Below are positions 1,133 through 25,056 of a stretch of DNA of 64,000 nucleotides, piece after piece. Position numbers and translations under genes: made by a program. A model generated the notes under the pieces. The model did not search any database and was not told the origin of the DNA. It was given only the letters and a program-made list of their open reading frames with translations. How positions within the stretch are numbered: position 1 is the first letter of the stretch; each line of letters begins with the position of its first letter. Source of the DNA: Naegleria gruberi (taxonomy: Eukaryota); the NCBI GenBank assembly GCA_000004985.1, contig GG738863.1. One strand, given 5' to 3'.

Positions 1133-3442
1133 ATGTTGCCATCATCAGATAGTAACACATCAACAGCTACTACTGCGCAAAATGGTGTGAGTAGTGATGG
1201 TGATTGTTGTTATTATTCAAATAATGTTGGATCATTTGGAGAAATGTATTACCGATTGTTAAAAAGGTTTCGGGATGAAGAAATGGATGGCAAATATGAA
1301 AAGGATCATAACATTTTGATTACAGCTGATTCTTTATTGCATGCTTTTCATTATAGTTACAAATCGATATTGGAGTCTATTGAAGTGCAAATATTATTTC
1401 CAAAATGTAAACATTTATTTACCAAGTTATTTAAAAGTATGAAGGAAACTTTGATTAAACATAAATTTTCGGACTTTGCTAATCCTTCTCCTCACTCCCT
1501 GTTGAATGGATTTGAGTTGGAACCAAGACCTATTGGTCTTATAGAGCAAGGATTATATGATTTGGATTTTTTCATAACACTTTCCACATCTCTCATTCAT
1601 GGAAAGGTTGAGGATTCATATTTTATGCAGAATAGACATAATGTACATTATTTATTTGAATTAATTCATAGAAGATGCGAACTTGGAAATGATTTCAGTT
1701 CATCATGCTGTTTATTTACAATTTTCGGAGAGAAGAGGTTTTTGGAATTTAGACTCTATCAACCAAATTGGTTTTACATTAGGGATTACATGAATAATTA
1801 CTTTAAATTATTGAGTTGGTGTAATAATACATTTATGGACATTACAAACATTCAACAATTTACACTCATTTTGTTGGTGTGGCTTTTAGTTGAAGAATCT
1901 AAAACTCTTGGTTGTGAATATTCTCAAATTGAACATTGCTACAAGAATATGATTGGAATCTCAGATTCTGCCAATTGTGATGATATCACTACTACTTTGA
2001 GAGAATATTTCAATATGACTGAATCTGGTACGGAAAAGATTGCAGAAAAGCTTTACTACACTCTTACTCTTCCTGAAAATGAAAAGGCCATAAGAGAAAT
2101 TCAGCAATTTGTAATTAAGAAGAATATTGGGCTGAATCAAATTTCTAATGCCAATTTAAAATCACCAAAAGAAGGAGTTGGTCACAAGGATGAATTTACA
2201 TTTTGCTTTTTTGGAAGAAAGTTCACTTTGGATTCATTCATATTCCATAATGTTACATTTGACAGACTTAAAGATGAAGAAAATATGAGATATCTTCCTA
2301 GAGTTATTCCAACAATTTTAGATGTTGGATACACATTTTTAGATTCTCCTGTTGCTGAGGAAATTTTAAAGAACACTGATCCATATCATGACATTGTGCT
2401 TGACAAGTTGAATGAACTCAAAACCAGTATTAATGAGTACAATTCCCATCCAAGCATTCATAATATATGGCTTGATACTTTGAAAGGGTTATCGACTATT
2501 TCACCATTGTTCCAAAAGGTGGAAAAGTATACCGCCAAAGTGTTAATAACCCAATTTTCAAGCTTTTCTCATCTCAAATATGACTCTTCACTATTTGCAA
2601 AGCAGCACATTGAAACAGATATTGAGCTTATGGTAAATAAGGAAGTATTTGATATTGATACCGAAGCATCAGAATATGTGGATATTGGATTTCTTGTTGA
2701 GGGAAGCACCACTTTCTTCACAAAATTTGTTGCATTAGTAACTTTTGTCAGAGATTTACTTCAAAATGATGTTCAATTTAGCTCAATGCCCATCAGCTCA
2801 GAATCTGTGAAATTCTATAACAATTTCATCTCAACCCTGTCAGTGCTAGCTGAAATTAATAGGAAACAAACTGAGACTGGAGAAAAGTTGACTGAACAAG
2901 AAACGTCGTTTTTATCCAACATGATATTTGCAAAGAAGGATCCAAAACAATTCAAAACACAAACATTCAAACAAGTGTTGGGTACTACCTCTCAAAACTA
3001 TTCTGTCAGTGGCTGGTATCCTAACTTGTTTTTCAAAAGAGATGATGCAGGAAGATTCAAACCAATAGTGATTGACATTCACAGATATCCAGATGTTGAT
3101 AATGGTGTAATCTTGTGGGAGGCAGTTGGTCCCATTCATCTATTTGAAATGTCTCTAAAGGATAAAAAGTTCTTTGGACCAATGTTCTCTCAATTCGAAT
3201 TCATAACACCATACACCACCAAATTGAATAATGCAACATGGAAGAGTAAGCTCCAACACCCAAATCTTGAATATAACGAGTGGATGAAAATGTTGAGTAC
3301 TGAAATTTGTTTAGGAAAGAACTTTATTGGATACAGTCATTTGGATCACTTTACATGTGCTGAGTATACTACTGGCTCTCCACCTTCTTCAGGGTCTTCA
3401 TCCTCTCCAAACTCTCCCAGCACGCCCAATGTTGGTGAATAA
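1133..3442 (+). CDS. Hypothetical protein, 769 aa, no family recognised
   Basis: Long uninterrupted ORF with an ATG at 1133 in an A-rich context (aaaaaATG). Composition looks globular with no obvious motifs. Confidence 0.5.
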   Translation: MLPSSDSNTSTATTAQNGVSSDGDCCYYSNNVGSFGEMYYRLLKRFRDEEMDGKYEKDHNILITADSLLHAFHYSYKSILESIEVQILFPKCKHLFTKLFKSMKETLIKHKFSDFANPSPHSLLNGFELEPRPIGLIEQGLYDLDFFITLSTSLIHGKVEDSYFMQNRHNVHYLFELIHRRCELGNDFSSSCCLFTIFGEKRFLEFRLYQPNWFYIRDYMNNYFKLLSWCNNTFMDITNIQQFTLILLVWLLVEESKTLGCEYSQIEHCYKNMIGISDSANCDDITTTLREYFNMTESGTEKIAEKLYYTLTLPENEKAIREIQQFVIKKNIGLNQISNANLKSPKEGVGHKDEFTFCFFGRKFTLDSFIFHNVTFDRLKDEENMRYLPRVIPTILDVGYTFLDSPVAEEILKNTDPYHDIVLDKLNELKTSINEYNSHPSIHNIWLDTLKGLSTISPLFQKVEKYTAKVLITQFSSFSHLKYDSSLFAKQHIETDIELMVNKEVFDIDTEASEYVDIGFLVEGSTTFFTKFVALVTFVRDLLQNDVQFSSMPISSESVKFYNNFISTLSVLAEINRKQTETGEKLTEQETSFLSNMIFAKKDPKQFKTQTFKQVLGTTSQNYSVSGWYPNLFFKRDDAGRFKPIVIDIHRYPDVDNGVILWEAVGPIHLFEMSLKDKKFFGPMFSQFEFITPYTTKLNNATWKSKLQHPNLEYNEWMKMLSTEICLGKNFIGYSHLDHFTCAEYTTGSPPSSGSSSSPNSPSTPNVGE

Positions 3443-20138: not shown

Positions 20139-21269
20139 TCATTTGTTTAAATAATTGACAAGTGAATAGCTCAATAAACCAGTCAAACCAAGTCCAACAA
20201 CAGCAGAACCAATCATTTTACCATAATATTTAACAGGATGATAATGTTGATAATCAATATCATAAATTCCAAACCAATTTTCAATCTTGTTTACAATGGG
20301 ATTCAAATCTCTCAGAGTTCCAATAACTTGAATGTCAAATCTGTGTTCGAAACCAATCTTTTCATAAATTGGTCTTCCTTCCATGGTTGCTTGCAATACA
20401 CAATATTGATAATTATTTAAAAGAGCAATTTCTAATAGCAGAGTCACAACCATGGAAGCATATCCTCTTCCTTGATAGTTTGGCCGTGTGGTAATGGAAA
20501 ATAGAGAAGCAGTTTCTTTTCCCTTAATAACTTGTCCACAAGAAACAACTTTTCCATCTTGTTTGACGAGAACCCATTCATAATCTTTGGATTTCAATAA
20601 ATATTGAGCATAGTATTGACTTGCTTCTTTTGGTAATTCTTCTCCTTCAAAGAATGCTTCGTAATAAGTTTCTGCAATTTCAATAGCTTCTTCAGGAGTA
20701 CTCAAAGTTTTAATTGTAAATTCCTTTCCTTGGGCTAGAATGACCCCAGATTCATTTTGTAATTTTTGTAAACTTTCCTCGTTATATCCAAAATCATTTT
20801 TCAACTTTTTCAAATTCTTTTCTCTTAAATTCCTACTCTCCTTCAAATCACATATCATTCCAGTACTAACTTCAATCCAATTAATTGGCATCTTGTCAAA
20901 TATTACTTGTTGCAATTTGTCAAACTTGCTCGTTCTATTTTTCGAGTCATACATTGGTACAAACAAGTAGACAGGTACTCCATCCGATTGTTCCCGAATA
21001 GTTTCCAATAATTGCAAGTGATTCTCACTTCTGGTAACATAATAAAGGTCAGGTACGGGCAATTTCTTGATCCCTTTTTTGAAACCAGGCATGCATTCAT
21101 TCTCATTCTCATGCAACTCAAAAATAGAGGAAAAGCTTTTAACAGTGGCTCTGTTAAAGTCAAAGAGTGAGTCCACAATGAGTCGATTCATTTTTTTGTA
21201 AGGAAAATTGATAATAATTGGTTTGCTCGGAGTTATGGCAGGAGTTAATTTTTCAAAATTGAAGCTCAA
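20139..21269 (-). CDS. GNAT-family N-acetyltransferase domain protein
   Basis: C-terminal GNAT motifs: VVSCGQV...RPNYQGRGYASMVVTLLLEIAL...EGRPIYEKIGF. The N-terminal about 200 aa is unassigned. There is a hydrophobic C-terminal tail. Confidence 0.55.
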   Translation of the reverse strand: MSFNFEKLTPAITPSKPIIINFPYKKMNRLIVDSLFDFNRATVKSFSSIFELHENENECMPGFKKGIKKLPVPDLYYVTRSENHLQLLETIREQSDGVPVYLFVPMYDSKNRTSKFDKLQQVIFDKMPINWIEVSTGMICDLKESRNLREKNLKKLKNDFGYNEESLQKLQNESGVILAQGKEFTIKTLSTPEEAIEIAETYYEAFFEGEELPKEASQYYAQYLLKSKDYEWVLVKQDGKVVSCGQVIKGKETASLFSITTRPNYQGRGYASMVVTLLLEIALLNNYQYCVLQATMEGRPIYEKIGFEHRFDIQVIGTLRDLNPIVNKIENWFGIYDIDYQHYHPVKYYGKMIGSAVVGLGLTGLLSYSLVNYLNK

Positions 21270-21864: not shown

Positions 21865-23079
21865 TTAATTCTTCTTTTCAATGTAATTGTCATGTTTCTT
21901 CTTATGTTCCTTCTTCTTGTGTTCCTTCTTTTCTGGAACATACTTGTCAACCTTAATTGGAGAACAAATCTTCTTCTTCTTTGAACAAACTGATTCTTCA
22001 CCATATTTGACACATTTCTTATGACCACCAACGAATTGATACTTGGCACAGACCTTATAACCAGGAGACTTCTTGACACACTTCTTCCAGTGCTTCTTCT
22101 TGATACATCTTGATTTGGTATGATGGTATTGAGTACAGAAGTTGACTGCCTTATAATTGGCACAGAATTTACGTTCCTTGAACTTTTCACAGACACGAAC
22201 TCTCTTCTTGAAATCACAGAATTGATTTTGACTCCACTTGGTACAGAAACGAGCCTTCTTTTGAGCAACACAGAACTTTCTATCAACGAATTTGACACAT
22301 CTCTTAGTGTAACCCTTCTTGAGACTGAATTTAACCTTATTGTATCTGACACACTTCTTAGTCTTGGTATATTTGGCACAAATCTTGTGACACTTTTGTT
22401 GACAGAAGGCATGATAATAAGTATCAGTCCATCCCTTGTAATGTTTACCGTTAACCTTCTTCCATCCCTTTTGGCATTTACAGACTTGCTTGTAGGCAGA
22501 ACAGTAAGCATCGAGCTTGTATTCAGCACATCTCTTCTTATAGTGATATCCGACCTTTGGAACATTGATGAATTTAGCACAGACATTTGACTTGTCATAC
22601 TTGGTACAAACGAAATGATAAGCATATTCATCACAAGCATTGTTCTTGCCCTTATGTTCACACAAATTCTTCCAGTTAGACTTGATACAATACTTTTCAG
22701 TCTTGTGCTTGTCACAAACTTGTTTGTAACCTGAAAAAAAGTTTACAAAAATTGTAAAATTTCAAATTAACTTACCATGACCCAAACACAACTTTCTAGC
22801 CTTGGAGTACTTGTCACACTTGCTGAATCTCTTGTATTGCAAACATTTGCCCTTACCAACCAACTTCCAGTCACAGCACTCTTTCTTGGTACCAATCCAT
22901 TCATAATCTGAACACTTTCCCTTGACTGTCTTGTAGTGAGTACACTTGTTGTAACAGAATTGTTGATGTTCTCCATAAGTATCAACATTCTTGGATGGTT
23001 CTGGTTTACTTGGATTTGCCAAGACCAAAGCAGCGAATGCAAGAGCAATGCACAAGCTTATAATGAATTTTGTTTTCAT
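21865..23079 (-). CDS. Secreted cysteine- and lysine-rich repeat protein (2 exons: about 22776..23079 and 21865..about 22729; 46-nt GTAAGT...TTTCAG intron)
   Basis: The ATG (minus) at about 23079 gives MKTKFIISLCIALAFAALVLA (signal peptide). The mature protein is about 400 aa with about 50 Cys and about 25% Lys. It has quasi-periodic units of about 10-12 residues, for example RKFCVAQKKARFCTKWSQNQFCDFKKRVRVCEKFKERKFCANYKAVNFC. The C-terminal tail is KKEHKKKEHKKKHDN. ORF 21813..22715 and ORF 22120..22590(+) are alternative or antisense frames. Confidence 0.6.
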
Positions 23080-23389: not shown

Positions 23390-24802
23390 TTATGGAACTA
23401 TCTTGTCTCTAATCTCCTTTGGTAGGGACATTTGGGTTATGTTGCATTGAGAGGCTCGGATAGATTTCAAATATTTACAATTTTTAGAAAGTATTGTAAT
23501 GCCATTATTTGTAACTGGATTTCCACTAATATCAAGATACTCCAAGTATGGTAATTCAGCTGATAATATTTCTACAAATCTGTCATTAATATCTTGGTCT
23601 GTGACTGTGAGACTTCTAAGGGCTTTGAATTTGAATAAGCTATCAATTGTTAATTGAGGAGAACGATTAATAATGAGCTCATTCAATTCGCATGCAACTT
23701 CCGTAGAGCCCTCAATCGATACGTTTTCAATCAATCCTAGTTTGAGTTTCTTCAAAGAAGGTATTGCTAACAGAGAAGTAAATGAATAACCAAGTCCACA
23801 CGAGATGAATTCTGCTGTTCTTATCGAACGATTGGAAAGTCGCTTGAGCATTCCAGGATAAATATATTCGTGGTCGAGACTGAGAGTCACTAATTTTGGT
23901 CCAAGATTTGAAAAGAATTCAGCTTGTGCTCTTTCTGGTGGTGTATCGTAGACGGTAGCCCATCCATTCGCCGATCCACCATTTTCACCCTTAAGAACTG
24001 ATCTGACAGTTCTCAAATTTGGCCAATGCTTGATTGCTTCAGCGAACCTGAACACTGATGAAACACTAGTTTGAATATCTATCGTTGTCAAAGAAGGGGT
24101 ATTAATTGAAAAATCAATAATGTCCTGCTCCTTCAAATCTCCCTTCTTCAATGAATAACCTTTCCATCTCAATACTCTCAACTTGGGGAATTTAATCTTT
24201 TTGAAAACATCAAAATCATACATGAGATACTTGTCCTGTATGAGTTGAATCTCTTCCAATGTATTTGCCATTGCCTCCAAACAAATCCTTAGTGCCTCAG
24301 GTGGCAATAATGTATGTTTTGCAACCAATCCAGTAATTTTATCAATAGGCAGCAATTTCAATGTTTTCCTTGTTTGTGACAAGGCCTTCTCTTCATCAGC
24401 CACAGCAATATCAAACAATAATTTTGAAAATGGTTGTTTCATCACAATATTTGCTCCGTGAGCACCCATCGATTGAACCAGTCTTAATAACTCGGACCTT
24501 TGATAAGGTTTAGCAGGATCTAGCTCCAATTTTCTAAATAAAAACTTTGGTTTGCAATCTCTTTGGCCCGACCTAGTAAATTTTCCAAAATACAACATTA
24601 AAAACTTTTTACGATTCGATCCACATGATTGATCGAATTTTCCTCCATAAAACTCCAAAATTTTCAGCAATAATTCAATCGGAAGCTTGCATAAACTTCT
24701 CTTCAATTCCTCCTCCAGTGGAGGTGCCTTAGGGAGAGGCGTTTTATTCTTCCTCAAGTTTTGCAAATTTTGTTTCGAGTTTGAAGGAGTTACGAGAGGC
24801 AT
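23390..24802 (-). CDS. F-box/leucine-rich-repeat protein
   Basis: An F-box-like LPIELLLKILEF motif is near the N-terminus. C-terminal LRRs (LEYLDISGNPVTNNGITILSKNCKYLKSIRASQCNIT). The likely start is MPLVTPSN (ATG about 24802). The ORF-track start further upstream is in poly-A context. Confidence 0.5.
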   Translation of the reverse strand: MPLVTPSNSKQNLQNLRKNKTPLPKAPPLEEELKRSLCKLPIELLLKILEFYGGKFDQSCGSNRKKFLMLYFGKFTRSGQRDCKPKFLFRKLELDPAKPYQRSELLRLVQSMGAHGANIVMKQPFSKLLFDIAVADEEKALSQTRKTLKLLPIDKITGLVAKHTLLPPEALRICLEAMANTLEEIQLIQDKYLMYDFDVFKKIKFPKLRVLRWKGYSLKKGDLKEQDIIDFSINTPSLTTIDIQTSVSSVFRFAEAIKHWPNLRTVRSVLKGENGGSANGWATVYDTPPERAQAEFFSNLGPKLVTLSLDHEYIYPGMLKRLSNRSIRTAEFISCGLGYSFTSLLAIPSLKKLKLGLIENVSIEGSTEVACELNELIINRSPQLTIDSLFKFKALRSLTVTDQDINDRFVEILSAELPYLEYLDISGNPVTNNGITILSKNCKYLKSIRASQCNITQMSLPKEIRDKIVP

Positions 24803-25056
24803 TTTTTCTCTTGCTTGAAAGTTAGTTTTTTCAAAGCAGCAAATGGCGGCTTTTTTTTCTGATGACAAATTAAAGAGCAACGTTTGGAGTAACGGTTCTT
24901 TAATATATTGAGCTTTTCATTTGGTTTGTTCAATGTTTGTTGAGTTACTGGAGGAGATTACAGTACTGTATTTGGTAAGGTTATGTGAAGAATGGGATGG
25001 ATTCTTCATTCCTCTATGGAATGATGTAATTTTGGTATTAATATATTAGTTAGTTA

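Follow-up and report, generated by a model that had tools for sequence, protein, structure and literature searches.

Cystine-ladder hairpin peptides (theta-defensins, protegrins, tachyplesins, arenicin and capitellacin) carry two to four disulfide rungs within 16-25 residues, at even Cys spacings of 2 or 4, and 'cysteine ladder' is a term in use for theta-defensins. Here we describe a gene of Naegleria gruberi for a Cys- and Lys-rich, putatively secreted protein, whose Cys pattern is mirror-symmetric and which, as modeled, resembles a cystine-ladder hairpin scaled up about twenty-fold. The gene lies on contig GG738863.1 (NCBI GenBank assembly GCA_000004985.1), in a stretch of 64,000 nucleotides that we call the window and whose DNA is AT-rich (about 33% G+C). 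It is NAEGRDRAFT_48501 (UniProt D2VCS7, P0028), and we refer to its product as the window protein.

Twin CX9C (CHCH) proteins of the mitochondrial intermembrane space are helix hairpins with two rungs and a C-x9-C motif, and have no signal peptide. Granulin, a 12-Cys module with CC doublets, stacks short hairpins into an all-beta rod, along whose axis the disulfides form a ladder. COWP of Cryptosporidium and the OWPs of Toxoplasma are secreted wall proteins, thought to be cross-linked by disulfides, in which Cys recurs every 10-12 residues or so within units of about 50-65 residues; we know of no report of mirror symmetry in them. Tyr/Lys/Pro wall and adhesive proteins include plant proline-rich proteins (PPVYK), extensins and mussel foot protein 1 (AKPSYPPTYK). 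Naegleria forms cysts, not spores. Acanthamoeba, another cyst-forming amoeba, has as its most abundant cyst-wall proteins a set of secreted lectins with Cys domains, which are lineage-specific and in some cases have Thr/Lys/His-rich spacers (PMC6541295). The Leo lectins have 8-Cys domains, some with such a spacer, Jonah(1) has a Thr/Lys/Cys-rich domain, and Jacob of Entamoeba has 6-Cys domains (PMC6541295).

The gene is a genuine, conserved two-exon gene of N. gruberi on the minus strand, with a spliced product of 389 aa (Table 1). Its span, given as 21865-23079 in the original prediction, a first reading of this DNA, is borne out by the start and stop codons. The 45-nt intron was absent from that reading, and the 'second cationic segment' that it placed at the start of the gene is actually exon 1 of the same protein. 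The product contains 23.4% Lys, 9.3% Cys (36 residues), 7.5% Tyr and 14% aromatic residues, together with 17 His. Cys makes up 11.1% of the core (residues 42-357) and Lys plus Arg 26-27%, close to the first estimates of about 12% and about 25%, the former holding for the core better than for the whole chain. Residues 23-389 have a mass of 43.8 kDa, a pI of 9.7 and a net charge (K+R-D-E) of +71, and no N-x-S/T sequon was found in the 389 aa. The signal peptide proposed earlier agrees with the -3/-1 rule and with a helix in the AlphaFold model; it is typical in its make-up, equivalent hydrophobic N-termini are found in all full-length homologues, and the protein is predicted to be secreted. The C-terminal tail, in which KKEHKKKEHKKK (residues 368-379) had been read correctly, is hydrophilic (read from the sequence; no membrane-anchor prediction was made), and its length and sequence vary among homologues.

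Cys residues recur with a strict period. Of the 34 Cys-to-Cys spacings of the window protein, 18 equal 9, five equal 10 and two equal 12. The autocorrelation of Cys positions counts 18 pairs at lag 9, whereas shuffles give 3.2 ± 1.6 (z = 9.2), and it shows harmonics at lags 18, 27 and 36; the highest count at any lag in 2000 shuffles was 12 pairs. An internal repeat, which the original prediction had suggested looking for, is therefore present, but its period is 9 (C-x8-C) instead of the 10-12 residues expected there. We obtained the nonamer consensus C1-h2-K3-[YF]4-K5-x6-x7-K8-[VFYI]9 from 144 C-x8-C units of nine family members. The earlier pattern, (K/R)KFC..(Y/K)K....FC, comes near this consensus, but the true unit is one residue shorter. 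The window protein consists of about 30 such degenerate nonamers, and when Cys was ignored, BLOSUM autocorrelation still gave weak peaks at lags 9 and 18 (z 2.6 to 2.9). At the DNA level, no 27-nt periodicity was detected; the one repeat reported by Tandem Repeats Finder is of 15 nt and lies in the tail-coding part of the gene. Therefore, the nonamer repeat is old and maintained by selection, not a product of recent slippage or low complexity.

The main structural feature of the protein, missed by the original prediction, is the mirror symmetry of its Cys pattern. A first-half Cys at position i has a second-half partner at 398-i, with the mirror centre near residue 199. The pairs are 42/357, 46/350, 56/341, 68-69/329, 79/319, 88/310, 98/300, 107/291, 116/282, 125/273, 134/264, 143/255, 152/246, 169/228, 178/219, 185/215 and 187/211; the sum is exactly 398 for 11 of these 17, and between 396 and 400 for every one. 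Counted from the centre outwards, the Cys intervals are 9 (=2+7), 9, 17, six times 9, 10, 9, 10 and 13 (=1+12) in arm 1, and 8 (=4+4), 9, 18, six times 9, 10, 9, 10 and 12 in arm 2. The irregular intervals are thus reversed between the arms, running 10, 9, 10 ... 17 along arm 1 and 18 ... 10, 9, 10 along arm 2. When the Cys-to-Cys spacings of the window protein were shuffled, the symmetry was matched in 0.08% of trials, and permutation of the arm-2 intervals against arm 1 gave P = 0.0004. As to the origin of the pattern, a direct or tandem duplication would not produce it, because the irregular intervals would then come in the same order and not reversed, and an inverted DNA repeat cannot encode a mirrored protein.

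We then consider how far the pattern extends among relatives. A word-indexed search of 5.8 billion proteins found 8 relatives, and a second, broader profile added only P0012. A HMMER profile search of 1.84 billion cluster representatives (E<=1e-3) gave only 21 matches, the three weakest being unrelated repeat proteins; P0024, P0026 and P0027 were set aside as repeat-driven matches and not taken as homologues. All named members come from Naegleria, and the rest from environmental contigs. N. gruberi has NAEGRDRAFT_48501, NAEGRDRAFT_64508 and NAEGRDRAFT_67458 (P0020); N. lovaniensis has two types, P0003 and the insert-bearing P0009, and C9374_012983 is among the family members of this species; and N. 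fowleri has FDP41_004030 (P0004). Family matches reach E-values of 1e-102 to 1e-244 with 33 invariant Cys. Full-length orthologues occur in the three Naegleria species and several environmental assemblies, with about 33 invariant Cys at an overall identity of 51-62%. The window protein shares the marks of the family, namely a signal peptide, C-x8-C nonamers and the motifs GKGKC, CLGHGYKQ and FVGG.

Paralogues in the same genome, proposed as a check in the original prediction, do exist: NAEGRDRAFT_67458 is a distant one, and NAEGRDRAFT_64508 (D2V6N9) is either a recent one or the other haplotype. The latter, an N. gruberi 'predicted protein' on another scaffold, is the best database match (96% identity). 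Its C-terminal tail is shorter than that of the window protein, which fits the 15-nt tandem repeat in the tail-coding DNA and suggests repeat slippage. Within the window, tblastn found no paralogue.

Some matches carry additional regions. P0019 (443 aa) joins SAM and PB1 domains (Pfam, in an unrelated N-terminal part) to half a ladder of Cys nonamers, most likely as a merged gene call and not as a real fusion. In P0012/P0030 (ENA and JGI contigs; L004 3836..5977), a less lysine-rich form of the ladder (K 13%, pI about 9.1) is fused to an N-terminal region of about 350 residues rich in C-P motifs (CPAGKKR etc.), which has no Pfam match above threshold, and the gene adjoins small GTPase genes on a eukaryotic contig. 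P0024 (2774 aa, from a 30-kb ENA metagenome contig) contains long arrays with a 9-residue Cys period (CSSFITSST / CFDYATLAA). These arrays are Ser/Thr-rich and not cationic, the match is weak (E = 5e-8), and P0024 is probably analogous rather than homologous to the family.

Mirror symmetry about a central loop is also a feature of the family, observed in the window protein, P0006 and P0020. The outer segment of P0006 has pair sums of 464 and its inner segment sums of 456-457, as calculated by hand from the Cys positions, and the spacing list of P0020 is symmetric about its own central gap of 15 residues. We next read the covariation of Cys positions and intervals from an alignment of nine family members, of which four sequences form type A. 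The arm-1 Cys 185 and 187 have been lost from N. fowleri and P0002 together with their arm-2 counterparts, Cys 211 and 215. Extra Cys at positions 163 and 237 of the window protein's numbering occur together in P0006, P0009, P0013 and P0012; the four type-A sequences have neither. Rungs 143/255 and 152/246 are separated by an interval of 9/9 in type A, of 17/24 in P0006 and of 15/21 in P0009. In P0013, the interval 125>134 is 11/11 compared with 9/9 elsewhere, and 19/22 replaces 17/18; the interval 169>178 is 12/12 in both P0013 and P0012 compared with 9/9, and in P0020 the interval 56>68 is 9/9 compared with 12/12 elsewhere. The only uncompensated interval changes are of a single residue. Changes compensated at mirrored sites about 100-300 residues apart are what physical pairing of the two arms predicts.

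The number of Cys left after the signal peptide is odd (35). In every full-length type A or type B member examined, we found one or two CC doublets at non-mirrored, lineage-variable positions; that of the window protein is residues 68/69. At least one thiol should therefore be free or intermolecularly engaged, and the surplus Cys of the window protein (68 or 69) may be such a free thiol or form an intermolecular bond.

We ran AlphaFold2 on the window protein with a 7-sequence alignment, and in a second run used the insert-bearing P0006, of a paralogue type, as the target. The best model of the window protein has a mean predicted local distance difference test (pLDDT) score of 69.9 and a predicted TM-score (pTM) of 0.21; the other four models have pLDDT of 35-49. 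The best model is all-beta, with DSSP strands within 42-197 and 203-357 and a turn at 198-202, and its strand breaks are mirrored (63-64/336-337, 75-78/323-325 and 92-94/307-309). P0006 was again modeled as a single hairpin (pLDDT 60.5; two of five models above 57), with arm 1 made of strands 52-154, a loop at 155-170 and strands 171-212, a tip loop at 213-246, and arm 2 made of strands 247-289, a loop at 290-312 and strands 313-413. The loops 155-170 and 290-312 are opposite each other in this model, so that two lineage-specific insertions would face each other. In type B homologues, the largest insertion is at the tip-loop region. A Foldseek search found no match below E = 9e-3; the top matches, all weak, were long beta-hairpin stems of pore toxins.

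Taken together, the symmetry, the compensated changes and the models suggest that the chain would fold back near residue 199 into one very long two-stranded antiparallel beta hairpin, in which each arm-1 Cys at i (42-187) would be disulfide-bonded to the arm-2 Cys at 398-i (211-357), forming about 17 rungs. We consider this model likely. With extended beta arms of about 150 residues each, at about 0.33 nm per residue, the hairpin would form a stiff rod some 50 nm long, carrying a net charge of about +71. At its open end, flexible tails rich in Tyr, Lys and Pro and bearing a D-x-Y-x-P motif would lie side by side.

D-x-Y-x(0-2)-P occurs 29 times in 11 family sequences, compared with 1.0 ± 1.0 times in shuffles. 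Nearly all occurrences lie outside the ladder: in the tails, at the tip loop, and in mirrored insert loops (type B and P0020). Its carriers include P0002, P0004, P0006, P0009, P0010, P0015 and P0020. N. fowleri has DTYKPP in the N-terminal tail and (IDSYKP)x4 in the C-terminal tail, and P0002 has (DTYKPPKKV)x3-4 in the C-terminal tail. The window protein has two members of the D-x-Y motif family, VDTYG (residues 32-36) and VDKYVP (residues 362-367). We speculated that D-x-Y-x-P may be a cross-linking or modification site.

Codon usage was also examined. In the gene for the window protein, AAG accounts for 74 of the 91 Lys codons (81%) and TTC for all 17 Phe codons. G+C at third codon positions is 0.45, compared with 0.19-0.37 in the other open reading frames (ORFs) of the window, which makes this the strongest codon bias in the window and suggests high expression. 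With Lys and aromatic side chains, abundant extracellular rods would hold on to polyanionic or glycan material, and surplus Cys, along with the Tyr/Lys motifs of the tails and loops, would lock the rods into a network. In view of secretion, a hydrophilic C-terminal tail, extreme charge, Tyr richness, predicted disulfide stapling, the Tyr/Lys/Pro motifs of ends and loops, the surplus Cys and the codon bias, and by analogy with the Acanthamoeba cyst-wall lectins and the Tyr/Lys/Pro wall and adhesive proteins, we tentatively suggest that the protein is structural, extracellular and abundant, with the cyst wall or surface matrix as its most plausible location, an assignment for which we would claim somewhat less than an even chance. 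For the explanation as a whole, in which a stapled hairpin rod serves a structural role in wall or matrix, we regard the case for and against as evenly balanced.

Several points weigh against this explanation. The alignments, of 7-8 sequences, are shallow; a pLDDT of 57-70 is reached by just one or two of five AlphaFold models, with a pTM of about 0.2; and the hairpin was read from per-residue secondary structure. Non-hydrogen-bonded pairs, the preferred sites of cross-strand disulfides in a regular antiparallel ribbon, come at even spacings; with the odd spacing of 9, a perfectly regular ribbon is unlikely, and bulges or irregular segments between rungs would be needed. Under i+j=398, many facing residues are Lys-Lys or Asp-Asp. 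The facing Lys residues argue against a textbook-flat ribbon and suggest that counter-ions or polyanionic partners matter. The covariation events may share ancestry, and those that are independent are few, roughly 5-6. The more distant relatives P0012 and P0013, though still basic (pI 9.1-9.2), are much less lysine-rich (K 13%) and have no D-x-Y-x-P motif. The gene, UniProt and locus identifiers appear in no searchable paper, nor in the supplementary tables examined of a copper proteomics paper on N. gruberi and a genomics/transcriptomics paper on N. fowleri, and we found no expression, localisation or proteomic evidence. A literature search for the composition or proteome of the Naegleria cyst wall found only work on Acanthamoeba, Entamoeba and Giardia. 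Encystation of Naegleria was described in 2021 as poorly understood at the molecular level (PMC8063937).

A predicted hairpin with mirrored Cys pairs could also belong to an effector, secreted or phagosomal, that attacks or binds bacteria: a giant cationic stapled hairpin, comparable to protegrin, tachyplesin or theta-defensin, which would bind the anionic envelopes of bacterial prey, possibly after cleavage at many dibasic sites. The net charge of about +71, the pI of 9.7, the signal peptide and a codon bias suggesting high expression would suit such a role, and Naegleria feeds on bacteria. However, the protein exceeds every known hairpin antimicrobial peptide about 20-fold in size and has no amphipathic face, since basic and aromatic residues alternate on both faces. 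Its framework is kept 1:1 across species with few subtypes per genome, unlike large and fast-evolving effector arrays, and homologues with K 13% and pI 9.1-9.2 exist. The D-x-Y-x-P tails and the surplus Cys would have no obvious role in an antibacterial protein, and we consider this reading, the main rival to a structural role, unlikely. The palindromic Cys pattern would suit pairing between chains equally well. Arm 1 of one molecule would then pair with arm 2 of another, giving an antiparallel dimer or a domain-swapped polymer and, in the end, disulfide-linked fibres, a simple route to an insoluble wall polymer in which the surplus Cys could take part. But the AlphaFold monomer models close the hairpin, the short tip loop is conserved in type A, and the two innermost rungs (185-215 and 187-211) link residues only about 24 apart, which favours closure within one chain, so that pairing between chains seems improbable.

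A regular array with most spacings at 9 is automatically near-palindromic, and the symmetry might then be a by-product of a regular repeat with local nonamer structure, be it disulfides between neighbouring Cys, a solenoid or a granulin-like stack of short hairpins. The moderate AlphaFold confidence and the odd spacing, awkward for a regular ribbon, are in line with this. Against it, the mirrored intervals are precisely the irregular ones (P = 0.0004-0.0008), the indels and the Cys gains and losses of homologues are compensated at mirrored and not at translated positions, and Pfam, including its granulin model, gave no match; we hold a purely local structure to be quite improbable. The 36 Cys, the 17 His and the K/H-rich tail bring to mind a secreted protein of the metallothionein-like or metal-storage kind, in which Cys and His would serve as metal ligands. 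The chance of this seems very slim, because the signal peptide directs the protein to an oxidising folding route, the strict 9-residue spacing and mirrored covariation point to pairing, and the Cys clusters of metallothioneins are missing: there is one C-x-C (185/187), two C-x3-C and one CC (68/69), but no C-x-x-C. An ORF with no known domain and no expression data found could be a low-complexity or annotation artefact, which the original prediction had named as a possible refutation. We consider this next to negligible, given full-length orthologues in three Naegleria species and environmental assemblies, with about 33 Cys invariant at 51-62% identity, a frame that stays intact across a canonical intron, a strong codon bias and no DNA-level repeat beyond the tail. 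A Cys framework invariant across species only about 50% identical contradicts the low-complexity reading.

Returning to the intramolecular stapled hairpin, we compared the window protein with the systems described above. The original prediction recognised no named family, and this stands: the window protein, P0006, P0009 and P0020 have no match at E<=1 to any Pfam family, granulin, EGF, defensin, cystine-knot and chitin-binding domains included, a search of PDB sequences with the family profile gave zero matches at E<=10, and Foldseek, as noted, found nothing of significance. Pfam gave only sub-threshold noise for P0030 (Chromo_shadow, E 0.051, 14.1 bits against a cut-off of 22.4; CGDB, E 0.23, 11.8 against 27.6) and likewise for P0024. 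On the basis of sequence symmetry and AlphaFold topology, the protein is predicted to share with the cystine-ladder peptides a cationic antiparallel hairpin with mirrored Cys pairs as parallel disulfide rungs. Unlike them, it would have about 17 rungs over about 316 residues at a spacing of 9, far from their small size (<~40 aa) and even spacings, and there is no sequence relationship. Like twin CX9C proteins, it would have two antiparallel elements tied by mirrored Cys pairs, but with C-x8-C, a predicted all-beta fold, a signal peptide and about 17 rungs it falls outside that family. With granulins it would share a disulfide-rich all-beta rod, whereas the Pfam granulin model does not match it.

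The wall proteins are similar in other respects. Like COWP and the OWPs, the window protein is putatively secreted and has Cys at a regular interval, whereas their repeat units, compared here by description only, are longer; the lack of a Pfam match bears on this relationship only indirectly. With the amoebal cyst-wall lectins, it has in common predicted secretion, restriction to one lineage, richness in Cys, basic low-complexity segments and origin in a cyst-forming amoeba. It has no homology to them, however, and a continuous ladder in place of their compact 6- or 8-Cys domains; glycan binding and cyst-specific expression have been demonstrated for the Acanthamoeba and Entamoeba lectins, whereas the window protein is a candidate for both. 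The tails and loops of the family contain short Tyr-Lys-Pro repeats (DTYKPPKKV, IDSYKP) like those of the Tyr/Lys/Pro wall and adhesive proteins, with a similar layout of rod plus reactive ends, although the predicted shaft is a disulfide ladder and not a polyproline helix. On the features compared, among them size, spacing and sequence, the window protein is a member of none of these families.

The sequence of the window protein and the reference model of NAEGRDRAFT_48501 (cluster look-up) are identical except for GYKQ, which is not in the reference model. The donor is shared, but the reference acceptor lies 12 nt downstream, so that the intron grows to 57 nt and 22719..22730 (minus strand) is skipped. 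Within CLGHGYKQVC, the H, the first G, the Q and both Cys are invariant in 7/7 aligned sequences, and CLGHGYKQ is present in 6/7. The acceptor of the 45-nt intron also restores the 9-residue Cys spacing, whereas the reference acceptor breaks it. Because both the conserved motif and the spacing are restored, we held the 45-nt intron to be correct. The reference model is probably slightly wrong, or else represents an alternative splice form, and its annotation should be corrected by four residues. The coordinates of all features are listed in Table 1.

Table 1. Features of the gene for the window protein and of its surroundings in the 64,000-nucleotide window
Feature	Position in the window	Strand	Basis or remark
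Exon 1 (codons 1-101 and first base of codon 102; start ATG at 23079)	22776..23079	-	GTAAGT donor at 22775; translation matches N. gruberi, N. lovaniensis and N. fowleri proteins
Intron, 45 nt, GT..AG (GTAAGT...TTTTTTCAG)	22731..22775	-	Removal restores CLGHGYKQVC
Exon 2 (including stop TAA, 21867..21865)	21865..22730	-	
Predicted signal peptide, residues 1-21 (MKTKFIISLCIALAFAALVLA, cleavage before N)	23017..23079	-	n/h/c regions by eye, -3/-1 rule, AlphaFold helix 3-20
N-terminal tail, residues 22-41, with VDTYG motif	22957..23016	-	AlphaFold pLDDT <50 for 22-39
Putative ladder arm 1, residues 42-187, 18 Cys including CC doublet; holds the intron	22474..22956	-	Cys positions; AlphaFold strands 42-197
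CC doublet, residues 68/69	~22873..22878	-	
Putative hairpin tip loop, residues 188-210 (QKGWKKVNGKHYKGWTDTYYHAF), symmetry centre near 199	22405..22473	-	i+j = 398; DSSP turn 198-202
Putative ladder arm 2, residues 211-357, 17 Cys, Cys spacing mirroring arm 1	21964..22404	-	AlphaFold strands 203-357
C-terminal polycationic tail, residues 358-389 (SPIKVDKYVPEKKEHKKKEHKKKHDNYIEKKN)	21868..21963	-	pLDDT <50 for 361-389
15-nt tandem repeat in tail-coding DNA, 2.3 copies, encoding KKEHK units	21896..21930		Tandem Repeats Finder
Downstream neighbour, GNAT acetyltransferase	20139..21269	-	Pfam E = 1e-10
Upstream neighbour	23390..24880	-	Weak leucine-rich repeat (LRR) Pfam matches, E 0.01-0.07
tRNA-Ile(AAT)	51935..52007	-	
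tRNA-Ala(TGC)	54085..54157	-	

The gene lies between two others on the same strand. The downstream neighbour was rightly taken for a GNAT acetyltransferase in the original prediction. The upstream neighbour had been called an F-box gene; an F-box-like LPIELLLKILEF is visible by eye, but Pfam gives weak LRR matches and none to F-box. In N. fowleri and N. lovaniensis, the orthologues sit among entirely different genes. The position therefore carries no functional information, and a functional link with the GNAT or LRR neighbour was rejected since synteny is not kept in these two species. Elsewhere the window holds genes for ordinary housekeeping proteins (HECT ligase, INCENP, P-type ATPase and glycine dehydrogenase) and for the two tRNAs. 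One ORF on the plus strand (1133..3439) has a strong DUF3160 match (E = 1e-58). In N. lovaniensis, contigs PYSW02000063 and PYSW02000075 both hold the orthologue and its neighbours (ASC-like, mitochondrial carrier, choline kinase and ORMDL) in nearly the same order, and are either haplotigs or a segmental duplication.

The sequence is already public as a 'predicted protein'; in the literature examined, we found no description of the nonamer code, of the mirror symmetry and its compensated changes, of the ladder model or of the D-x-Y-x-P motif, all of which appear to be new. If true, this would be by far the longest known disulfide-laddered hairpin, a genetically encoded stapled nanorod with a simple 9-residue code, of interest to structural biologists and protein designers. 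The predicted disulfide map makes the hairpin directly testable. It is possible, though on present evidence rather doubtful, that the family represents an undescribed architecture, a hairpin of about 315 residues with 15-18 rungs, whose polycationic rods of about 50 nm are joined, by way of surplus Cys and D-x-Y-x-P motifs, into the cyst wall of Naegleria, including N. fowleri. The walls of Naegleria cysts protect the organism in water systems, and their make-up is essentially uncharacterised at the molecular level. The family is conserved in the brain-eating N. fowleri (FDP41_004030), where an abundant, lineage-restricted wall or surface protein would, if true, be a candidate marker or target.

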